From assembly GCA_004524535.1 (NCBI GenBank), contig SDNY01000064.1:1-20764 (forward strand): a stretch of 20,764 bases of DNA. The letters run 5' to 3'. The position numbers and the translations under genes are program-made. Each line of letters begins with the position of its first letter. The stretch's first letter is position 1. Positions 1,282 to 20,015 of the stretch are shown piece by piece. This DNA is from Promethearchaeota archaeon (lineage in GTDB: Archaea > Asgardarchaeota > Lokiarchaeia > Sigyniarchaeales > SOKP01). The notes under the pieces were generated by a model. The model searched no databases. It worked only from the letters and a program-made list of their open reading frames with translations, and was not told the DNA's origin.

Positions 1282-2238
1282 ATGACTGTAATTATCCCAA
1301 AAAAAGCTTATTTAACTATTGTAGCAGCGTCTGTTAGATTTGCAAATCCTAAGATTCCCTTTGACGATTGGTTAGAAATATATGGTATTTTTACGGGAAA
1401 ATCTTCCAAGAATGGTAAGGATTTAATAATTACTAAAGCATATAATATTACACACCAAGTAAAAAGGGAAGAGGATATAATAGACAAGGTATATTGGTCT
1501 GATGAAGATTATATCTCATTTAGTATAATTGATGACGATGCGTTTTCAAAAGGCGAATATACTGTAGGATGGTATCATTCTCATCCTGGTCACAGAGTTA
1601 TGATGACTAGTTTAGATATACGCACTACAGCAACTTATCAACAATATAATCCTCTCGCAATATCTCTTGTATTTAATCCGCAACGATTAATCAGACAAAT
1701 TGAAATCGCTGAAAGAAAAGGATATCCCGAACTTAGATTAGAAAACGATCCCGGCTTTAAAATCTTTAGATTGGACAATCCTGAAAATGCGGATTCAAAT
1801 TACCACGAAGTTTTTGATTATAAGATTGATGGATTTGAAAGTGAAGAGCAATTAGTCGAATATTCTCAAAAGTTCGCTAAGGATATAACAAATTTATTTC
1901 CTAACGATAATGTCGTTGAATCATATAACAATTACGTCAATGATAAATTAACAAAATTAAATTCATTATTCATGGGAACTGAAGATTATTTGAAATCATT
2001 AGCTCGAAAAGGCGAAAAAAGTAGGATCCCTGAAGTTTTAGAAAATCAAAAAAAAGAGATTAATCAATTTGTAGCAGAAACATTTATGAAAATAGAAAAT
2101 ATGAAAGAATTCCTTGATTATCTCGAATATAAAGAAAGAGATGTGATAATTCCAAAAGTGAAGGACGTCTTATCCAATTGGGATGAAAAAATTTCTAATT
2201 TAGAAGAGAATTTAAAGGAATTATCAAAAAAATTCTAA
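1282..2238 (+). CDS. MPN+/JAMM metalloprotease (deubiquitinase/desampylase-like) with helical/coiled-coil C-terminus
   Basis: WLEIYG glutamate; VGWYHSHPGHRVMMTSLD = H-x-H-x7-T-x2-D JAMM motif (Thr in place of Ser); 'YQQYNPLAISLVFNP' fits the post-JAMM MPN segment; heptad-like C-terminus. Confidence 0.9.
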   Translation: MTVIIPKKAYLTIVAASVRFANPKIPFDDWLEIYGIFTGKSSKNGKDLIITKAYNITHQVKREEDIIDKVYWSDEDYISFSIIDDDAFSKGEYTVGWYHSHPGHRVMMTSLDIRTTATYQQYNPLAISLVFNPQRLIRQIEIAERKGYPELRLENDPGFKIFRLDNPENADSNYHEVFDYKIDGFESEEQLVEYSQKFAKDITNLFPNDNVVESYNNYVNDKLTKLNSLFMGTEDYLKSLARKGEKSRIPEVLENQKKEINQFVAETFMKIENMKEFLDYLEYKERDVIIPKVKDVLSNWDEKISNLEENLKELSKKF

Positions 2239-2435
2239 ATTACTTAAAATCTATTTTTTATTCTCTACTTCCAAAAAAGCTTTTAATATTTTTTACAGAT
2301 TAACATTAAAAATATTATAATTTCTACTTTCTTTTTCTATTATCGCAAATTTAAAGTTCATAATAATATTTTTGATAATTGGGTTTGTAAAGAAAACTTA
2401 TTAATTGCTTTTACCTTACTATTTTTAAAAATTAT

Positions 2436-4655
2436 TTGACTAAATACACGATGAAAAAGATTAATTTTCCCTTCACAGCGATCCTAGGACAAGATAAAAT
2501 GAAAATGGGCTTAATTTTAAATGTAATTGATCCTCAAATAGGTGGAGTTTTGCTAACAGGGCATCAAGGAACGGGCAAGTCGACTGCTGTTAGATCTTTA
2601 GTTGAAGTTATGCCTAAAATTGAGATTTTTGAGGATTGCCAATTCTCTTGCGATCCAAAATCTAATATCGACGATTTGTGTGCTTCTTGTCGAGAGAAAA
2701 AGAAAACAGGTAACTTCAAAACAATTATTAGGGAAATGAAAATTGTGGATCTGCCACTAGGATCAACCGAAGACATGGTGGTGGGGTCATTATCCATTGA
2801 TAAGGTACTTACTCAGGGGACATCAGAACTTCATCCAGGACTATTAGCAAAAGCTAATCGAGGTATATTATATGTTGATGAAATAAATCTTTTACAAGAC
2901 CACATAGTTGACGTTCTTTTGGATGCCGCAGCGTCAGGAATCAACATAATAGAGCGTGAGGGAATATCAGTTTCTCATCCATCTCGATTTGTCTTGGTCG
3001 GCTCTATGAACCCCGAGGAAGGGGAATTGAGGCCACAGATCGCTGATAGGTTAGGTTTAGAAGTTAAAATAAAGGCACCGCGAGATCCTAAGTTGCGGGC
3101 CGAAATTACTAAAAGAGTAATAGAATTTGATGATAATCCAAAGGATTTTATTAAGAACTATGAAGAAGAGCAGGAAAAATTAAGGCAAAAAATACTTAAT
3201 GCGAGAAAGATCATTAGTTCGGTTGAAATTCCAGCGCGTATGTACGAATTAGTATCGAAAATTGTTAATGATCTTGGAATTTTTTCACAAAGAGCAGATA
3301 TAACATTCATTAGATGTGCTAGGGCGAACGCTGCTTTAAATGGTAGACGGAAGATTGAACAAGAGGATCTTAATGTTGCTATGGACTTAGTTTTTGAGCA
3401 TCGGATTGCATCGTTGCATTATGAACTGACTCCTAATGAAATTAAAGCGAAAATTGCAGAAGTTTATGGAAAAATTGAAGAAGCAATCGAAGATCCAAAA
3501 GTATATAAATCTAATCCGGAAACTGAAGGGCCTTTAAAGCACGATGATACACCTCAAGAAGACTTTAAGCGACAACCTATTGATCCTGATAAAGTGGATG
3601 TTGGAGAAACAAAAGAACAAAAATTACCTCCTCCTAAATATCCAGATAAGAAAAAGAGAAAAGCAAAACCAGCAGGAGGTTGGAAAGTTAAAGATATACC
3701 ATTTGAAGAAGCAGATGATTTTAATTTATCAGATGATGATTTTGATATAACTTCATTTGTTTATAGGATGGAAAAGAAAATGAATTCTATTTTAGATAAT
3801 ATTCGCAAAGATCGTAGAGTTTCTGATTATGGAGGTCGGGGAATTGGTCGTAGAATTAAAATAGCATCATCTCAAAAAGGAAGGTATGTATCATATCGGA
3901 CTCCTAGAGGTCAGCGACCAAAAAGTATAGCTTTAGATGCGACAATTAGGAACTACTTAAAAAATATTGTGTACAATCAAACGGAAATTAGCTTTCCAAT
4001 TCGATTTAATAAATATGATTTAATGGATAAAATCTATGAATATCGAGCACCATTAGCGCTATTTTTTGTTCTTGACAGTTCTGCGTCAATGTACTATGTT
4101 ATTAAACAAATGACTGATGTTATTTTATCTTTACAAAAGGAAGGATATAGAAAAAGAGATAAAATTTGCCTTATAATCTTTAGAGGTAAAGAGGCTGTTG
4201 TCCTGCAAAAGCCGACTGTTATTTTTAAATATGCTTTAAATAAAATAAAAAAAATAGAGGGAAAGTCATATACACCAATGGCAGCTGCCTTAAGGAAAGT
4301 TATGGACTTAATAAAGGCAGAGAAAATGAAAAATAAAAATATTGTTCCCGTAATTTTTATTTGTTCAGACTGTGGTGCTAATATCTCAGCGAAATATCCT
4401 GATTTGATAGCTCAAATCGAAAGTGATTATGTCGTAATTATTCAGGAATTAAAAGAATTAACCAAAAAGCTGTCAAAACAAAAAGTTCATCTAGTTGTGT
4501 TAGAACCAAAAAAATCATACGCAACGCAGGCACTTGGGGTACATCCATATTCTGCTGATAAAATTAAGAAAAATTTCAAAAGGTATGGAGGAGCTGAGAT
4601 ATATAAATTCGATAAATATGATGCTCTACAATTAATTTTAAAAAAAATAATTTAG
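2436..4655 (+). CDS. Mg/Co-chelatase ChlD/BchD-like AAA+ ATPase fused to a C-terminal vWA domain
   Basis: [10 protein letters not shown]-terminus, Walker [10 protein letters not shown], '[16 protein letters not shown]' Walker B, '[13 protein letters not shown]', acidic/Pro-rich linker, vWA MIDAS DSSAS...YTP...SD. Start is TTG 2436 or ATG 2451. Confidence 0.9.
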
Positions 4656-7957: not shown

Positions 7958-9166
7958 TCAAATAATCATATCAACAATAGTATGTTGGATTATTTGTGGC
8001 ATCAGTCCGAATGCCTCTATCCCATCAACCGAAATGGCATTTGGGAATGCTTTTTTCATGATATTATATGCGCCGTTTACATCAGCGTTAATAATCGTTC
8101 CATCAGAAGCACGAAAAAGACCTCGTCTAATCCGTTTCCCGAGATATATATTATGTTTTTTGATTTTTTCCTTATCTAAGAAACTACATTTTGAAGTATA
8201 AGCCTCATCATCCGTGATATAGTGAATCCCCACTAATTCTGCTTTATATTTGATTTGGAGTAGTAACTTAGAAAAAGGAATTTGAACAAAATTCTGATTA
8301 TTTCGCTTTCCTATATTAATGTCTTGTTTCCATTCTTTATTATATCCGATTACAATACTCCCTATGTTATGCTGAATGCAATATTCTACAATATATCGAG
8401 ATGTTCGATGAAAGAGAGTGGTGATTTTATTAGTTCGTTTTAAATGGAGTCTCTTGATTCGCTTGGTATCCTTGAAATAACCTTTCCTATTTTCTATACT
8501 CCTATAATTTGCTAACTGTTTGTTGTAAAATTGATTTATGGATTTTAATACCTTACCTTTAATAATAATTGGTTCTTGACCAATATTATTTACAGCATTT
8601 ATAAGGTTATTTAATCCCAAATCAATCGCTAAAACATTATTTTGATTTAAATGAAAATTTTGCACTTCTTTCTCATACACTATTTCAACCTTATATTTTG
8701 TACCTAAGGGGATTATTCTTACTTCTTTTAACTTATCTTTTATTCTGATCTTTATAGGTGCAATATTAATCCTTTTTGGAAAATATAAATATCCATCTTT
8801 GATTTTACATTGCTGATTCGTAAAAATAATAATAGTTTCTCCATTTTTGTTCTTATATCTTGGTATTCTTGGTTTTTTCTTAAATTTTTTATAATTCTTT
8901 TTATATTCTTGTAGTGCTTTAAAATATGATTTCCAATTTCTCCTTACTACTTTTAAAATCTGTTGAGAGGTCTGAGAAGGTAACTTTCTATAGGCTTCTT
9001 TATGCTTGAGAATAAAATCCAAATCATAATAACTGAGGGTATTATTTAGTTGAAAAAAATCTTGTCTTACATACCAATTCGCTGAATTATACAAATCTTT
9101 CGCTAAATGGCATAATATAGAAAGTTCTTTTGAATATGGTACTTGAATTTGTTCAGTTAATCTCAT
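7958..9166 (-). CDS. tnpB: RNA-guided endonuclease TnpB
   Basis: 'AKDLYN' N-terminus, LPSQTSQQ, PRIPRY, RuvC-I LAIDLGLNN, RuvC-II region IVIGYN...DEAYTSKCS, 'KRIRRGLF', RuvC-III INADVNGAYNI; 402 aa. Confidence 0.95.
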   Translation of the reverse strand: MRLTEQIQVPYSKELSILCHLAKDLYNSANWYVRQDFFQLNNTLSYYDLDFILKHKEAYRKLPSQTSQQILKVVRRNWKSYFKALQEYKKNYKKFKKKPRIPRYKNKNGETIIIFTNQQCKIKDGYLYFPKRINIAPIKIRIKDKLKEVRIIPLGTKYKVEIVYEKEVQNFHLNQNNVLAIDLGLNNLINAVNNIGQEPIIIKGKVLKSINQFYNKQLANYRSIENRKGYFKDTKRIKRLHLKRTNKITTLFHRTSRYIVEYCIQHNIGSIVIGYNKEWKQDINIGKRNNQNFVQIPFSKLLLQIKYKAELVGIHYITDDEAYTSKCSFLDKEKIKKHNIYLGKRIRRGLFRASDGTIINADVNGAYNIMKKAFPNAISVDGIEAFGLMPQIIQHTIVDMII

Positions 9167-13293: not shown

Positions 13294-14205
13294 TTAAATC
13301 CCTTCCATTCTTTTTTTCTCTTCCTCTATCCTTTCTTTTTTAAGCTCTTTTTTTTCTTTATAAGTCATATGCTGGTCGTGTCTTTTAATATATAACTCTT
13401 CATATTTTTTTCTTAAATTTTCAACATCTTCAATCTGTCCCAATACATCCTCTAAACCATCTTCAAAAAATCTATTTTTTTTGAATTTCTTTGCGGGAAC
13501 CCCAACATAAATCCATCCCTCTTCTAATTCTTGACCGACAATAGTAACTGAATTCGCTGCTAAAACACTATTCTTTCCTATATGTGTACCTGGCATAACA
13601 ATAGCATGGGCACCTATTCTAACATTATCTTCTATTATTGTTTTCTTTATTATTAAGAGATTTCCTACAATTACAGCAGATTGAACGATGCTACCTTGCC
13701 CCACAACGACATTTTTTCCAAAATCTATAAATTCGCAATCTACCCAGCCCTCAAATAGCGAGTTTGAAAATTTTGTTTTTACACCAAACATTTTAAAAAC
13801 GACATTGTCTAAAAAAGGGAACGGAAATTTATGTGCTAGCCAAATTGGCCATTTTTTTATGGTATTTCGAAGACTCCAATAACGATAATCTCTATCTGAG
13901 GGCTTTCTTAAAAAGACACCTTCCTTAGGTTTATGAATTGCATTGACTATTAAAAGCAATATCTTAGCAAATAATAATGATGTGAAAACGGCTGAAACAT
14001 ACATTAGAAAGCAGAGTAGCGGAAGAAAAATATAAAAATGGATTGGCCTTATTGGATCCCAGAGCCATCTCCAATAAAACCATAATTCTAAGAGTACAGG
14101 AATCATCGAGACCCACATGAGAAATATATAAAAAATTAAATATCTTTTTTTTACTAAAACTGTTGGAACAAACGGACCTACCCTCATAGAAGTTGGAACA
14201 GACAT
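13294..14205 (-). CDS. Membrane protein, 2 TM + left-handed beta-helix (hexapeptide) acyltransferase-like domain (paralogue 3)
   Basis: Two N-terminal hydrophobic helices, HKPKEG, YWSLR, FGVK, hexapeptide repeats (IEDNVRIGAHAIVMPGTHIGKNSVLAANS), GVPA, charged helical tail. Confidence 0.85.
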   Translation of the reverse strand: MSVPTSMRVGPFVPTVLVKKRYLIFYIFLMWVSMIPVLLELWFYWRWLWDPIRPIHFYIFLPLLCFLMYVSAVFTSLLFAKILLLIVNAIHKPKEGVFLRKPSDRDYRYWSLRNTIKKWPIWLAHKFPFPFLDNVVFKMFGVKTKFSNSLFEGWVDCEFIDFGKNVVVGQGSIVQSAVIVGNLLIIKKTIIEDNVRIGAHAIVMPGTHIGKNSVLAANSVTIVGQELEEGWIYVGVPAKKFKKNRFFEDGLEDVLGQIEDVENLRKKYEELYIKRHDQHMTYKEKKELKKERIEEEKKRMEGI

Positions 14206-14222
14206 TTTTTCAAACCCTTGAA

Positions 14223-15122
14223 CTATATATTAATTTTATCCTTTTTATCTTCTTCAATATTAATTTCATGCTCAATGCTTATTGCCTGCTCATCATCAAC
14301 AATACTTTTTGTTATAAATTTCGAACCACCTAGTCTATTTGGTTTCAGCTTTATGCAAGGAATACCAAAGTAAATCCATTCTGTTTCTAAGAATTGACCA
14401 TAAACTGTAGCAGAAAGTGCGCCTAAAAATGAATCCTTTCCTGAAATAGTTCCTGGTGAGACACAAGCCATTCCTCCAATAATAGTATAATCACTAAATA
14501 TTAATTTTTTGATAATTAGGTACTTTCCAACAACCATTGAACTCATGACTACAGCACCTTGTCCAACCAAAACTTTCCGTCCAAATTGTATAAACTCCAT
14601 ATCACACCATGAATCTTGGAGATGACTTGAAAAATCCATCTTCACTCCAAACCATCGGAAAGCTAATGTATCAATCCACGGTAAAGGGCAATTTCTCACA
14701 AGCCACATTACTAATTTTTTTAATTCTGTTCTCATACACCAGAACTCAAAGTCTTTGTCTCCTTTCTGAGCTAAAAATATGCCTTCTTTCGGTTTATGAA
14801 TAAGATTAATTAAAATTAAAAAAAGCTTACTAAAAAAGATACATCCCAAAATAAAAATAAACAACATAGAAAAAATTGCGACGGGTAGGAATAAAATAGG
14901 AAAAAGATAAACCATCCAATCTTCTGTTATTGGAGGTAAATTCTTGAAATATTCATATAAATATATTCCAACTAATAACCCGCTAAACCAAAAAATTGGA
15001 ATATAAATTACAAGAAATTTGATACTAACTCTACCAATTGCGCTACTAGTTGTGAAATCAAGTGCATATTCCTTCTTATCAATATTTTCTTTATCTGATG
15101 TTTCAATTATCTTTTCAGTCAT
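14223..15122 (-). CDS. Membrane protein, 2 TM + left-handed beta-helix domain (paralogue 2)
   Basis: Two TM helices, HKPKEG, FWCMR, FGVK, D-x-x-FIQFGRKVLVGQG, IIGGMACVSPG, YFGIP. Confidence 0.85.
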   Translation of the reverse strand: MTEKIIETSDKENIDKKEYALDFTTSSAIGRVSIKFLVIYIPIFWFSGLLVGIYLYEYFKNLPPITEDWMVYLFPILFLPVAIFSMLFIFILGCIFFSKLFLILINLIHKPKEGIFLAQKGDKDFEFWCMRTELKKLVMWLVRNCPLPWIDTLAFRWFGVKMDFSSHLQDSWCDMEFIQFGRKVLVGQGAVVMSSMVVGKYLIIKKLIFSDYTIIGGMACVSPGTISGKDSFLGALSATVYGQFLETEWIYFGIPCIKLKPNRLGGSKFITKSIVDDEQAISIEHEINIEEDKKDKINI

Positions 15123-15131
15123 AGGTTTATT

Positions 15132-16031
15132 TTATAAGTTTTTTTCTCTATCATTGATTTCTTTTAAATTCTTATTTTTCTCTAAATCTTCTTCAGATAT
15201 TTTCAAATAATTCATTACTTTTTTCGTAAAAATTTTACGGCCTGGAATACCAAAATAATAATTATTACCTTTCGTAATCTGTTGTTTCGCAAAGGCACCA
15301 AGTGGTAACATATAAGAGTTATCTTTTATTTCACAACCAGGTCCAGCTATATTAAGTGCAGCCCAAGTAACATTATCTCCAACCTTTACTTCAAAATAAG
15401 GAATTCTTCCAAATATACCCTCGACTGCATGAGAACATATTGCTGAGTTAACTCCTATATAACAGTTATCCCCAACATCAATAAATTTATCAGCAACAAC
15501 CTCTTCTTCGATAGTTGTACCTTTCCCAATTTTACATGATCCTACAAAATTAAAGAACCAATTAGCCAACCATGGAAAAAGCCCTTTAGTAAATGCATTT
15601 TTTCCATATTTTATTATAAATGATCGGATATGGTAATAATTCAACGTATCACTAGGGACGGTCCGAAGAATAATCCCATTCTGAGTAGGACTCCTCCATT
15701 CAGTAAATCTCCAGAGCACTCGAGTTAATAAAGCAATAAGAAATAAATGTAAAAGGTAGCAACTAATTGTAATTAAAGGCATTAAAGCTAAAGCTAATAG
15801 GGGTCTAAGGTCTGTAAAAAGGGAGAAAAAATCATTGATATCCAAAAAAAAAGGTTTAAAAACTAAAAAAAAGTATAACATGAAAACAATTCCAGGAAGG
15901 AAATAAGATCCCAAATAAATAATAGCAAAAAAAGTTAAATATAAGTGAAATTGTAGGTTAATCTCTTGTTCTTTTTCGCCTTTTTTTTCTTCAGTATTAT
16001 TAATCTTTGGCTCTTCTTTCATATTAGCCAT
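15132..16031 (-). CDS. Membrane protein, 2 TM + left-handed beta-helix domain (paralogue 1, retains His)
   Basis: Two TM helices, PTQNG, YYHIR, CKIGKGTTI, DKFIDVGDNCYIGVNSAICSHAVEG, VKVGDNV, YFGIP. Confidence 0.85.
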   Translation of the reverse strand: MANMKEEPKINNTEEKKGEKEQEINLQFHLYLTFFAIIYLGSYFLPGIVFMLYFFLVFKPFFLDINDFFSLFTDLRPLLALALMPLITISCYLLHLFLIALLTRVLWRFTEWRSPTQNGIILRTVPSDTLNYYHIRSFIIKYGKNAFTKGLFPWLANWFFNFVGSCKIGKGTTIEEEVVADKFIDVGDNCYIGVNSAICSHAVEGIFGRIPYFEVKVGDNVTWAALNIAGPGCEIKDNSYMLPLGAFAKQQITKGNNYYFGIPGRKIFTKKVMNYLKISEEDLEKNKNLKEINDREKNL

Positions 16032-16234
16032 TTTATGTCCTTTTTATAAAGAATGCTAATTAATTATTGGTTTTAATGCAAAATTATGTAATATTTTAAT
16101 AGATAATTTTTTCAACTATTAATTTTTGACTATTATTTCTTTTAAATTATTTATCTACTAAAACGATTTCTTTTAAATATTTTAAGAATAATTGTAAAGA
16201 TAGTGGAGTTTTTAGTTTAGATACAAGTATGATT

Positions 16235-16900
16235 TTATCTATTAGAATCCATATACCCTTTTATATATTTATAAACTTCTTCAGCGGGTTGATATACTCC
16301 AAAATGCCCTTCGCATAAAATATCTGCTTTTAAATCAAGCAGTTTTTGCATTGATTTTTGATAATCGTCTAAATTAGAACCAAAACTTTTCATAAATGGA
16401 CCGTGAAGGTCTTGTCCAAATAAGATCTTAGTACCTTCAATTTCTACTAACACAGAAATAGATCCAGGAGTGTGGCCCGGAGTATGAATACATTGAAATT
16501 CATATTCACCCAATTTTAAGATCTCAATTTCTTTAGTGAATCTCTCATGTAATTTTATTGGTTTATAATCAACACCGTACCAAGATGCTGCAGTTTTACG
16601 ATCATATCCTTTTTGTTCAATAGCATCAGCATCTAAATCATGAGCGTAAAATTTCATATTCTCATTAAGTGAAACTTTTAATTCATAGCAGATAGCAATA
16701 TGATCTATATGGCAATGGGTTAGAATGCAATGTTTTATGTTTTTTGGATTTAATCCAAAACTATTGATATTTTTTACTATTAAATAAATATTCATCCCAG
16801 AATCAATTAAAACAAGACCATCATCACTATTTGTATTCACTAAATATACAGAACAACCAGAATCTCCTAAATGATACACATCTTTAAATATTTTTTTCAT
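16235..16900 (-). CDS. Metallo-beta-lactamase-fold hydrolase (glyoxalase II-like)
   Basis: LIDSG, THCHIDH, HTPGHTPGS, LFGQD, EGH. Confidence 0.93.
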   Translation of the reverse strand: MKKIFKDVYHLGDSGCSVYLVNTNSDDGLVLIDSGMNIYLIVKNINSFGLNPKNIKHCILTHCHIDHIAICYELKVSLNENMKFYAHDLDADAIEQKGYDRKTAASWYGVDYKPIKLHERFTKEIEILKLGEYEFQCIHTPGHTPGSISVLVEIEGTKILFGQDLHGPFMKSFGSNLDDYQKSMQKLLDLKADILCEGHFGVYQPAEEVYKYIKGYMDSNR

Positions 16901-16910
16901 TTCGATTAAA

Positions 16911-18527
16911 TTAAAGGATTTTTTCTCTTAAAGTTTTTACATCTAAATTTTTTAACTTTTTGTAGAATCGAATGAAAAATAAATAACATCCGCAAGACCA
17001 AATAATCCAAGAAACAACCTGCCATCTATCTAGATTTAAGAGGTAATTGATAAAATTATCAGCTTTTCCTAAACCGAAAAAGTTCAAAACATCATGAAAG
17101 GGGTATTGAACCTCTATTCTTCTATGCTTATCATTCATCGCTACTACTTCATGGTCGTTTCTCCTCAAATTTTTAAAGATGTTATCCACTGATTTATCCT
17201 TAGGATTTTTCAATCGGAGTTTAATAAATGTGTCTAATTCTTTGTTTTTATGTTCATCGGTACCGGCAATGCATGTTAAATTGTGATCTAAGCAAAATTC
17301 TCTTATTTTTTTGTCTTTAGGATTTCCTCCATTTACGATTTCGAATCCATCTACACCCCAATCCATTAACTGTTCAAGAGTATAAGGAATACCTCTTCCA
17401 TCTTCCTTTGCATTTTTTTCCGCGTTATAGTGGTTTACAAAGATATAACCTCCTTCTCGTTTAACATGTTTTATAGTGTCTTCGGCGTTCATTGATTTGA
17501 ACGGGCATGTTGGTGCATCTGATTCTTTAGGAACAACTGTATGATCAAGACCGAAAATGTTCATGTGTATATCATTGTCATGATCAGTCCACTCTTCTGC
17601 AATAATAACGGTAAAATCTAAATCGTATTCTTTAACAAATTTTCTTGCTACCTTTGCACCTCTTTGATTATCATGATCCGAAAAGGCAGCTCCCGAAATC
17701 CCTTGTTCTATATACCACATAACTCTTTCTTCGGGTGTCAAATATCCATCAGAATATATTGTGTGCACATGAAAATCAAAAAGAAATTCATCATGATCGA
17801 GGTCAGTTTCGATCTCTTGAGTGGGCCACTTAAATGATACTAAAATCACGCTCAATCCAAGCATTAAAAAGATAAACCCGGCACAATATGCCAAATGCTT
17901 TTTGAATTCGTTAGCATTGTGGGTTTTTTTTTCTTTTTTCTTGAATTTTTCTGAATAATTAAATTTATATTCAGGATTCCGATATTTTGCCAGAATATAT
18001 CCTCCTTTAAGAGCAACCAGAGTCAATCCAATAGGGACGAAAATTTGTACTAAAAACATAAAATAGAGGTTAACAAAGTAGAAACCAATAAAAATATAAG
18101 CGAACAATAAAAACACCATACAACAGGCCACCCCTCCTCCAATTAAAATACCTGAAAATCTTAAAAAATCTCTGAGAGGGTAATTTAACAACTGGACTTT
18201 TTCCGAAGGCTCAAACCCTCGCTTCTTTTTAATATAAAAGTGGTATATAACCTGTATAATGATATAAGATATTATAAATCCAGAAATCCAATTAAAATCG
18301 ACTGAAAATACAAAAGCAATTCCTATAATTGGCTCAAAAAAATATCTTAAAAGCGGGATTCGAGAATCATATGTCGAGGAAACATTCTTTCCATCAATCA
18401 AGTCATAAAAAGTAACTTTACGCTGAGCAAATATAGCTAATATTATCAGACAGATAATCCAAACTAAAAAAACCCTCTGAACAAACTTTAAAAATTTAGA
18501 TTTGTTTTGATAGTTTGTATTTTTCAT
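16911..18527 (-). CDS. Multi-pass membrane protein with PHP (polymerase/histidinol phosphatase) domain
   Basis: About 5 N-terminal TM segments and one C-terminal TM; DFHVHT-x2-SDG, FSDH, AEEW, NH, GFEI, GTDEH. Confidence 0.85.
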   Translation of the reverse strand: MKNTNYQNKSKFLKFVQRVFLVWIICLIILAIFAQRKVTFYDLIDGKNVSSTYDSRIPLLRYFFEPIIGIAFVFSVDFNWISGFIISYIIIQVIYHFYIKKKRGFEPSEKVQLLNYPLRDFLRFSGILIGGGVACCMVFLLFAYIFIGFYFVNLYFMFLVQIFVPIGLTLVALKGGYILAKYRNPEYKFNYSEKFKKKEKKTHNANEFKKHLAYCAGFIFLMLGLSVILVSFKWPTQEIETDLDHDEFLFDFHVHTIYSDGYLTPEERVMWYIEQGISGAAFSDHDNQRGAKVARKFVKEYDLDFTVIIAEEWTDHDNDIHMNIFGLDHTVVPKESDAPTCPFKSMNAEDTIKHVKREGGYIFVNHYNAEKNAKEDGRGIPYTLEQLMDWGVDGFEIVNGGNPKDKKIREFCLDHNLTCIAGTDEHKNKELDTFIKLRLKNPKDKSVDNIFKNLRRNDHEVVAMNDKHRRIEVQYPFHDVLNFFGLGKADNFINYLLNLDRWQVVSWIIWSCGCYLFFIRFYKKLKNLDVKTLREKIL

Positions 18528-18566: not shown

Positions 18567-20015
18567 TCATTTCCTTTTAAAAAATAAAAATAGTGAATAA
18601 AAACCTTCAAGTAAAATCTTGAAATCTAATATTGTTTCAATTTTAGATAATTTTTTTAAGAAAAATTGAAACCTTAAATAAAATTTTTTATACATTAAAT
18701 TGTATAATTTTTTAATATCTTTCTCAGAGAGATTTTCTAATCTCATAATTTGTTTGGAAAAATCGTAATCATCCCAATTATATGTTAAAATCAAATTTTT
18801 TTCTTTTGCCCATTTAAACATTTCTGTTCCAGGATAAGGGGTTGTAATATTAACAATCAAAATATCAGGATTTAACTTATTCACAAAAACAATATTTCTA
18901 ATAATACTTTCTTTAGTATCCCCTGGATTACCTACCATAAATGCAAGCCGATTATCAATACCAGCTTGTTTTGTCCAATTAACTGCATTAATTACCTGTT
19001 TTATATTTATTTTCTTATTTACATTATTCAATACTTTTTTGTCGATAGTTTCAATTCCATACATAATTTGATGACAACCTGCATATTTCATCCATTTTAG
19101 CATTTTAGGTGTTACGTAATCAACTCGTGAAAAACAGCACCATGAAATTTTAAGTTGATTATTTATAATCAATTTGCAGAAGTCTATTACATTTTTTCTA
19201 ATAGATGTAAAATTATCATCATAAAATTGAAATTCTCTTATACCATAATTATCAATAAGATATTTAACTTCTTTAAAAATAGTCTTAGCAGATTTATAAA
19301 TTAATTTATTTCCAAGAGGTTTGGAACAAAATGTACATTTTCCTGGACAACCTCTTGAAGTAAGCATACTCATTGCTGGCAATTGTTTATAACTCCCCTT
19401 TGCTGGTTTATATTTATGAATTGGTAATAGATCAAAAGCAGGCATTGGCAAAATATCTAAATTTGTTATTCTCTCTCTTGGTTTATTATAAATAATTTTG
19501 TAATCCTTGTTTGAGTAATTTTTATAAACAATTCCATTAATATTTTCAATCTCTTCACCTCTTACAAGTTCCTCCAATGTAATCTCACCTTCTCCAATGA
19601 CTATTATATCAATATATTCTTTATTAATTACTTCTTCTGGCATGAATGTTGCGTGTACCCCTCCAAAAACTATTATGGCATTTGGATAGTATTCTTTACA
19701 AATTTCAGCAATTTTAAATGCCTTTTTAATTTCAACAGTCATGGCAGTAAAACCAATATATTTTATTAAACTATATTTTGAAACATACTCCTTTTCAAAA
19801 TATTTCCGAAAGGTTTGAACTGAAGGAGATTCTATTAAACAATCGAGGATTCTTACACTATGACCTTTCCATCGTAAATAACCTGCTATATCAGCAAGAC
19901 CTAAATGTGGAAAATTAGACTCAACTCCCCACCAGATATTTTTGCTTTTTCTATAAAATCTAGGTGGAGCAATTAACAAACAATCTAATACGTATTTATT
20001 ATCTGCTATTTTCAT
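18567..20015 (-). CDS. B12-binding domain radical SAM protein (class B methylase/BchE-like family)
   Basis: PHLGL, ILD, GGVHAT, GEGE, TSRGCPGKCTFC (CxxxCxxC), FYDDNF, GIET, FMVGNPG, PYPGT. Confidence 0.95.
   Translation of the reverse strand: MKIADNKYVLDCLLIAPPRFYRKSKNIWWGVESNFPHLGLADIAGYLRWKGHSVRILDCLIESPSVQTFRKYFEKEYVSKYSLIKYIGFTAMTVEIKKAFKIAEICKEYYPNAIIVFGGVHATFMPEEVINKEYIDIIVIGEGEITLEELVRGEEIENINGIVYKNYSNKDYKIIYNKPRERITNLDILPMPAFDLLPIHKYKPAKGSYKQLPAMSMLTSRGCPGKCTFCSKPLGNKLIYKSAKTIFKEVKYLIDNYGIREFQFYDDNFTSIRKNVIDFCKLIINNQLKISWCCFSRVDYVTPKMLKWMKYAGCHQIMYGIETIDKKVLNNVNKKINIKQVINAVNWTKQAGIDNRLAFMVGNPGDTKESIIRNIVFVNKLNPDILIVNITTPYPGTEMFKWAKEKNLILTYNWDDYDFSKQIMRLENLSEKDIKKLYNLMYKKFYLRFQFFLKKLSKIETILDFKILLEGFYSLFLFFKRK

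Follow-up and report, generated by a model that had tools for sequence, protein, structure and literature searches.

How three adjacent genes for similar membrane proteins in an Asgard archaeon should be read, as three enzymes or as three parts of one, is the question raised by a 20,764-nucleotide (nt) stretch of DNA from a Promethearchaeota archaeon (Sigyniarchaeales, SOKP01; assembly GCA_004524535.1, contig SDNY01000064.1, positions 1 to 20,764), hereafter the window. An earlier reading made from the letters alone (the sequence-only reading) had likened these genes, here called A, B and C, to the terminal C1-C2-C3 module of epsilon-poly-lysine synthetase (Pls), split into one gene per repeat and assembled as a membrane heterotrimer. 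Sequence comparison and structure prediction now lead us to regard A, B and C as probably, though by no means certainly, the distinct subunits of a single acyltransferase that is embedded in the membrane and has pseudo-threefold symmetry. The genes and the spacers between them are as follows.

15132–16031, minus strand: gene A, 299 amino acids (aa), proposed catalytic subunit, carrying His201 (open reading frame (ORF) list)
15123–15131, minus strand: A/B spacer, 9 nt, after the TAA of A and in frame with both genes
14223–15122, minus strand: gene B, 299 aa, without the histidine, Ser195 instead (ORF list)
14206–14222, minus strand: B/C spacer, 17 nt
13294–14205, minus strand: gene C, 303 aa, without the histidine, Ala177 instead (ORF list)

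The three genes are clearly paralogous, with B and C sharing 42% identity (E 1e-62), A and C 26% (E 2e-13) and A and B 21% (E 2e-7). These pairwise identities of 21–42%, together with the ORF list, confirm the initial description of three co-oriented paralogues of 299, 299 and 303 aa separated by 9 and 17 nt. A and B lie in one reading frame (16031 − 15122 = 909 = 3 × 303), with nothing but the TAA and three codons between them. C is the most conserved subunit: the best 120 of its listed relatives, each standing for one 90%-identity cluster, are 72–93% identical to it.

Each protein combines a membrane hairpin of two helices with a helical linker and a left-handed beta-helix. The two transmembrane (TM) helices first noted in each protein are confirmed by hydropathy segments, by the AlphaFold model of A and by the model of a natural triple fusion, all of which place two long helices at the N terminus. 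In the model of A (predicted local distance difference test, pLDDT, 72.3 overall), an N-terminal tail precedes a hairpin of helices 28–63 and 75–113, with block-mean pLDDT of 93–98 over residues 31–110, followed by linker helices 129–148 and 153–163, the beta-helix and C-terminal helices; C ends in a charged helical tail. The beta-helix attributed to all three proteins was recovered for A and C through the Pfam family Hexapep (PF00132; 28.4 and 40.8 bits, cut-off 27 bits), and B, for which the Pfam scan returned no match, Hexapep included, is assigned to this fold because of its identity to C. An arginine-rich stretch follows the second helix (TRVLWRFTEWR in A), and by the positive-inside rule the beta-helix would therefore be cytoplasmic. 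Among the motifs originally listed, (Y/F)-x3-R (YYHIR in A, FWCMR in B and YWSLR in C) and the G(I/V)P ending (FGIP, FGIP and VGVP, respectively) occur in all three proteins; in the three-way alignment, P-x2-G stands in B and C (KPKEG in both) and not in A, which has P-x3-G (SPTQNG). The A, B and C types each have a separate set of invariant residues, those specific to the C type including H125, with H200 nearly invariant.

Among solved structures, the best fold matches of the soluble part are maltose/galactoside O-acetyltransferases (MAT and LacA; TM-score on target 0.56–0.63 over about 185–190 columns), and Foldseek with the monomer model of A returned weak matches (best E 5.2e-4). Sequence searches of the PDB with A, B, C, the triple fusion P0121 and an A-type profile recovered only soluble hexapeptide enzymes and gamma-carbonic-anhydrase (gamma-CA)-like chains, and no membrane form of the unit appeared in the PDB sequence and fold searches. 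The ESM Atlas returned, for the most part, Promethearchaeota clusters of the family itself and, in addition, a single hexapeptide cluster from bacteria (Bdellovibrionota) at 0.94.

That A, B and C belong together is borne out by gene order and gene fusion. Across 18 loci fetched from relatives and containing 22 complete sets, C follows B and B follows A in every set (22/22), with B–C gaps of −14 to +24 nt. A and B are fused in eight of these sets and split in 14, the fusion protein measuring 605–633 aa; the same loci contain four further A–B genes without a C of their own (L021, L024, L028 and L037) and two extra A genes (L026 and L033), most of them beside a complete set, as well as one B cut by the contig end. 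Conservation of the triplet, on which the sequence-only reading had made its proposal depend, therefore holds for the A–B–C unit, which is old, and not for the copy number of whole sets, which varies, one fetched locus containing as many as three complete sets. A second paralogous system combines a fused C'–A' gene with B' in 11/11 loci. Among 16 longer homologues, four are C–A–B triple fusions of 651–805 aa (P0121, with 805 aa, P0124, P0127 and P0129), 11 are C–A and one is A–B. The fusion orders A–B, C–A and C–A–B are all cyclic permutations of A–B–C, and are therefore as expected for a ring of three. The source genome (3.66 Mb, 99% complete) itself holds nine units in three sets:

Set 1: A, B and C of the window
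Set 2: contig C165, a fused C'–A' gene (521 aa), then B'
Set 3: a pair on contig C191 (C191a and C191b) and an unlinked A-like gene on contig C37

Structure prediction points the same way. The model of the A+B+C complex scored 0.84 in all three runs, against 0.46 for the best of three controls and 0.00 for the other two; in the 0.46 control A had been swapped out and C was still placed on B. Of 80 solved complexes, 58 reach the mark used for such models, as do 2 of 110 mismatched pairs. At least 78% of contacts recur between the runs, and partner pLDDT is at least 79; among these contacts, membrane helix 2 of A meets membrane helix 1 of C, and the beta-helices meet face to face. P0121, a natural triple fusion, was modelled with AlphaFold (pLDDT 84.5, predicted template modelling score 0.85), and its model has the same series of elements laid out three times along one chain. 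Conserved order, natural fusions and the complex model, the last of these a prediction, thus support the membrane heterotrimer with one gene per repeat that had been proposed, and we infer a 1:1:1 complex of A, B and C.

A proposed division of roles among the subunits concerns a single histidine. In the alignment, the column of His201 of A is His in 29/29 A-type units, Ser in 28/28 B-type units and Ser or Ala in C-type units, the window having Ser195 in B and Ala177 in C at this column; His201 is invariant in 31/31 A-type sequences. Within the other sets of the source genome, A', the A-like gene on contig C37 and C191a keep the histidine, and B', C' and C191b do not. It is also kept in single-gene Asgard forms, both in the four examined and in all eight stand-alone ones of the unit alignment. 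The A-type profile aligns this column with residue 115 of LacA (1kqa; counted from the printed alignment). Since B and C lack the presumed catalytic histidine, the complex should, by this comparison, have a single active site. In the complex model, residues 191, 222 and 240 of A touch residues 179–181 of C, and residues 197–201 of B also touch C, so that by symmetry the His201 side of A would face B.

This arrangement departs from that of the soluble enzymes of the same fold. MAT and LacA are soluble hexapeptide acyltransferases that use a coenzyme A (CoA) thioester as donor; they provide the best fold match for the soluble part, and LacA His115 aligns with His201 of A. They are, however, soluble homotrimers with three equal active sites, whereas in the Asgard triplet the three subunits differ from one another, all of them have a membrane hairpin, and there is one histidine to a trimer. 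The same asymmetry recurs in more distant three-unit proteins. Nine verified Pls enzymes (see below) carry the histidine in unit 3 (9/9) and in neither unit 1 nor unit 2 (0/9 each). Five proteins of about 650–690 aa (P0146, P0148, P0166, P0174 and P0175) are similar to the Asgard triplet in having three units of two TM helices and a left-handed beta-helix (2TM-LbH) and no adenylation or carrier domains, and differ in being one fused chain, in forming a clade of their own and in that the histidine-bearing unit is the middle one; the histidine is confined to unit 2 in four of the five, and P0175 has it in all three units. Three-unit proteins outside the Asgard set bear generic names, and two of their clusters carry the names of Elusimicrobiota metagenome-assembled genomes (MAGs), hence our label Elusimicrobiota-type. 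The one-histidine pattern in Asgard, Pls and Elusimicrobiota-type units thus suggests that three lineages reached a trimer with one histidine. A further carrier-free three-unit protein, P0150 (960 aa), has an N-terminal short-chain dehydrogenase domain.

The single-gene 2TM-LbH proteins of other Asgard families (242–290 aa) share the unit and its histidine with the triplet; unlike the triplet, they are encoded by one dispersed gene, which in two families has a partner gene of the metallo-beta-lactamase (MBL) fold (4/4 and 5/6 loci). They presumably represent the homotrimeric ancestral state.

How close the triplet stands to the Pls and PosA synthetases was addressed with a profile of 26 aligned Asgard units, searched against 1.84 billion representatives. 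It matched 37,974 of them at E ≤ 0.001, 3,874 at E ≤ 1e-10 and 516 at E ≤ 1e-30. Many of the best 150 matches are proteins of about 1,300 aa, each with exactly three matching stretches that cover approximately positions 22–250 of the 275 in the profile (E 1e-44 to 1e-54). Of 31 long matches scanned with TIGR02353 and the adenylation model TIGR01733 (P0245 was left out), nine exceed the cut-offs of both, with 460–643 bits for TIGR02353 (P0206, P0211, P0215, P0219, P0223, P0226, P0240, P0242 and P0244), and by these domain models are true Pls/PosA synthetases. With hhalign, the Asgard profile aligned to 48 Pls units at 99.9% probability (E 2.7e-33, 183 columns), and A aligned to Pls unit 3 over 230 columns, both membrane helices included. 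The homology to the Pls/PosA terminal module that had been suspected is therefore real at the level of the unit, hairpin and linker included.

The order of elements is shared as well. In the passages of the PosA study that describe its AlphaFold model, the module has six bent membrane helices and three five-turn beta-helices, with two helices and a strand between each hairpin and beta-helix (PMC10522769), so that hairpin, short strand, two linker helices and beta-helix succeed one another in both systems. Both also have three different units per assembly, with the histidine in one unit only. There are also differences: A, B and C have no adenylation or thiolation domain in their chains, and none was found in the window or the genome; one polypeptide with six TM helices there corresponds to three genes in the window here; and the histidine-bearing unit is the first in gene order in the Asgard triplet and the last in Pls. 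Full-length PosA homologues of 1,100–1,800 aa are reported in the same study for a few archaea (PMC10522769).

Membership of A, B and C in TIGR02353 itself, by contrast, did not hold. Direct matches reach 20.7 bits for A (E 1e-4), 17.9 for B (E 8e-4; residues 85–259, including the second membrane helix and the linker) and 36.8 for C (E 1.5e-9), far below the cut-off of 423.1 bits; natural A–B fusions of relatives score 44–58 bits, and a six-frame search of the source genome gave 16.9–37.6 bits. These direct matches were rejected as specific evidence, because 14/14 control genomes match too and ordinary hexapeptide genes of the source genome score higher. A one-to-one assignment of A, B and C to C1, C2 and C3 by hidden Markov model scores was likewise abandoned, the scores being low and mixed (unit 3 with A in 11/16, unit 2 with B in 12/16, unit 1 split 5/5/6).

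A quick IQ-TREE search with 91 units (SH-aLRT support in brackets) unites Pls units 1–3 in one clade (98) and, separately, the three Elusimicrobiota-type units in another (96), the latter beside the single-gene Asgard forms; a further group (92) combines the Asgard A types (95) with the B/C types (94). Separate clades for Pls, Elusimicrobiota-type and Asgard units argue that the threefold state arose independently in each lineage, unless the units of a lineage had been made alike by concerted evolution, which seems unlikely because A is only 21–26% identical to B or C. Within the Asgard part, A' groups with A and B' with B, and C' joins B and C in a clade (97) whose branching is not resolved. 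From this, the second system looks like a copy made after A, B and C had already become distinct. The notion of a split copy of Pls C1-C2-C3 is not borne out by these separate clades, and the Asgard family is best described, on the strength of the profiles and the tree, as a sister lineage of the Pls/PosA C1-C2-C3 polymerisation module. Literature searches turned up no archaeal relative of the Pls module described as split or carrier-free; the sequence-only reading, too, knew of no described archaeal system of this kind.

All known enzymes of this fold use a phosphopantetheine thioester as acyl donor, carried either by CoA or by a carrier protein. Pfam and NCBIfam scans found no adenylation or thiolation domain in A, B or C, and the observation that the window has no adenylation or carrier domain extends to the genome as a whole. 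There, a search for genes of adenylation, carrier and phosphopantetheinyl transferase (PPTase) type, proposed together with that observation, returned no match to PF00550 (PP-binding) or PF01648 (PPTase, ACPS-type), and of 15 matches to TIGR01733 none reached the cut-off for amino-acid adenylation; the genome contains 13 AMP-binding genes. In the window's family, PF00550 occurs in 2/21 genomes and in 0/14 high-quality ones, and the LbH family is found in 15/15. The trans-acting carrier entertained as a donor in the sequence-only reading is thus unlikely, and because the genome lacks both a carrier domain and a PPTase, a CoA thioester is the likely acyl donor. Some neighbouring genes give weak hints in the same direction. 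A gene resembling ADP-forming acyl-CoA synthetases (Succ_CoA_lig plus CoA_binding; L061:5323–6813) adjoins the unlinked A-like gene on contig C37, the same synthetase family stands beside single-gene forms in 3/10 loci (L046:4940–6391, L050:1–1416 and L052:1299–2861), and an acyl-CoA dehydrogenase gene lies beside the second system in 4/11 loci, the other neighbours there being mixed. The transfer may be single, or it may be repeated so as to build a polymer, as Pls does.

Taken as one enzyme, the complex would contain six membrane helices, one two-helix hairpin coming from each of A, B and C, and three cytoplasmic beta-helices of the maltose/galactoside O-acetyltransferase kind, which would pack side by side as in hexapeptide acyltransferases, with each subunit adding two linker helices. 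His201 of A, together with the face that B turns towards it, would form the single active site, a CoA thioester would serve as acyl donor, and the acceptor would probably be held at, or passed through, the six-helix membrane part.

Several observations weigh against this picture or loosen it. Because orphan A–B (four) and A (two) genes exist, the stoichiometry may be more flexible than 1:1:1, and these genes, together with C being the most conserved subunit, suggest that one C could serve several A–B pairs. That same subunit C lies outside the proposed catalytic interface. The complex model covered the A+B+C heterotrimer, and since solved beta-helix homotrimers exist, its beta-helix part may owe some of the score to likeness with them. 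The position of His201 at the A–B interface is deduced by symmetry from the predicted contacts, and its proposed function leans on His115, which we take to be the catalytic base of LacA. Finally, the gene neighbourhoods of the triplet and of the second system indicate no acceptor.

These points leave room for other explanations, of which one holds that A, B and C each form their own homotrimeric acetyltransferase, anchored in the membrane and acting on a different substrate, and that the genes are adjacent only through tandem duplication. Hexapeptide acyltransferases are normally homotrimeric, single-gene 2TM-LbH relatives exist in other Asgard families, and orphan A–B and A genes would be unsurprising under such a model. 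It nonetheless appears distinctly unlikely to us, as it leaves unexplained why B and C lack the histidine that A and all single-gene forms keep, why the A–B–C order is retained in 22/22 sets, why A–B, C–A and C–A–B fusions and type-specific invariant residues exist, and why the complex model reaches 0.84 against 0.46 for the best control. An even more different trimer, gamma-CA-like or purely structural in the manner of the heterotrimeric gamma-CA module of mitochondrial complex I, is suggested by matches of C to gamma-CA-family chains and complex I CA subunits in the PDB (E 2.6e-7 to 5.5e-6, from sequence only). The best fold matches over the whole soluble part are maltose/galactoside O-acetyltransferases instead, the A-type histidine aligns with that of LacA, and the closest homologues of known function are the amide-forming modules of Pls/PosA, so that we consider a gamma-CA-like function extremely improbable.

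Two further explanations take the kinship with Pls as their starting point. A true polymerase of the Pls kind, making a homopoly(amino acid) for export and fed by a separately encoded adenylation enzyme and carrier protein, would accord with the unit-level Pls/PosA homology, hairpin and linker included, with the shared one-histidine asymmetry and with the 13 AMP-binding genes of the genome. We judge it very unlikely, however, in view of the 99% complete genome without a PP-binding domain or ACPS-type PPTase, the scarcity of PP-binding domains in the family (2/21 genomes), the failure of all 15 TIGR01733 matches to reach the cut-off, and the fact that the units are not orthologous to C1, C2 and C3. 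A carrier-independent relative of the Pls polymerase could instead turn CoA-activated monomers into an unrecognised polymer or a repeatedly acylated surface or lipid molecule, perhaps exported, with paralogous sets making different products and the one-histidine heterotrimer having evolved three times (in Asgard archaea, Elusimicrobiota-type proteins and Pls); this bolder proposal is speculative and, in our estimate, rather unlikely as a whole. A single membrane acyltransferase built from A, B and C is the reading that we retain.

C has 774 relatives of similar length at E ≤ 0.001, and the best 120 of those listed come from Asgard MAGs under several names, with generic labels such as 'DapH/DapD/GlmU-related protein'. 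A match at E ≤ 1e-5 occurs in 68 of 121 genomes sampled from the phylum, strong matches being found in the window's own family (15/15 genomes) and in a second family of the same order (2/2). Outside those two families the best E is 1.8e-16, and the matches are single dispersed genes of 242–290 aa with the hairpin-plus-beta-helix layout.

The surroundings of the triplet include the following features.

16032–16234, minus strand: region 5' of A, 203 nt, A+T-rich
16235–16900, minus strand: MBL-fold hydrolase gene, directly upstream of A, 203 nt away
16911–18527, minus strand: membrane protein of 538 aa that includes a PHP-domain metallohydrolase part, co-oriented with the MBL gene and upstream of it
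18567–20015, minus strand: B12-binding radical SAM protein, best NCBIfam match HpnJ, sub-threshold
7958–9166, minus strand: TnpB-like gene (OrfB_IS605 plus Cas12f1-like TNB domain)
1282–4655, plus strand: JAB/MPN-domain gene, then a gene for a 739-aa protein with AAA (Mg-chelatase-like) and VWA domains

The 203-nt A+T-rich region is likely the promoter region of the three-gene unit, and the TTTATAAAAA stretch about 20 nt ahead of the ATG of A may be an archaeal TATA-like box. Downstream of C lies a convergent alpha/beta-hydrolase gene. None of the window's neighbours recurs beside the triplet in the 18 loci of relatives. The neighbours that do recur there (ribonucleotide reductase, alcohol dehydrogenase, UvdE, DUF1295, CN hydrolase and others) were considered as functional partners and set aside as local synteny. 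Elsewhere in the source genome, a GDPD phosphodiesterase gene is also close to the A-like gene on contig C37, and a Ras-family small GTPase gene (L059:2913–3482, contig C165) lies directly downstream of B' on the same strand, with no counterpart in 10 related loci.

In four of the five genomes with which the comparison began, the MBL-fold gene has a single close orthologue each; a second, weaker match occurs in G038. Of 30 loci with an MBL orthologue, 10 have a 2TM-LbH gene within 1.5 kb: the window, 5/6 loci of one other family (the sixth being at a contig start) and 4/4 of another. In the nine loci other than the window (L088, L091–L096, L098 and L100), the MBL orthologue, 47–50% identical, stands directly beside a single-gene 2TM-LbH gene. 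No such adjacency was found in 15 other genomes of the window's family (0/15) or in four loci of two further families (0/4). For the single-gene forms the MBL link is real; for the triplet it is uncertain.

How the three tandem units of polylysine-type synthetases cooperate is not settled. Our PDB sequence and fold searches found no solved structure of a polylysine-type polymerisation module, and the relevant passages of the PosA study describe its module as lacking one (PMC10522769). The Asgard family offers the Pls-type unit as separate genes and as two-unit and three-unit fusions, free of adenylation and carrier domains, and thereby provides comparative evidence that the three units of the polylysine-type module act as one ring with one histidine-bearing site. 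A, B and C are small, separable proteins suited to structural and enzymatic work. For the organisms themselves, they would represent a highly conserved Asgard membrane enzyme that could bear on the envelope or lipids of these archaea.

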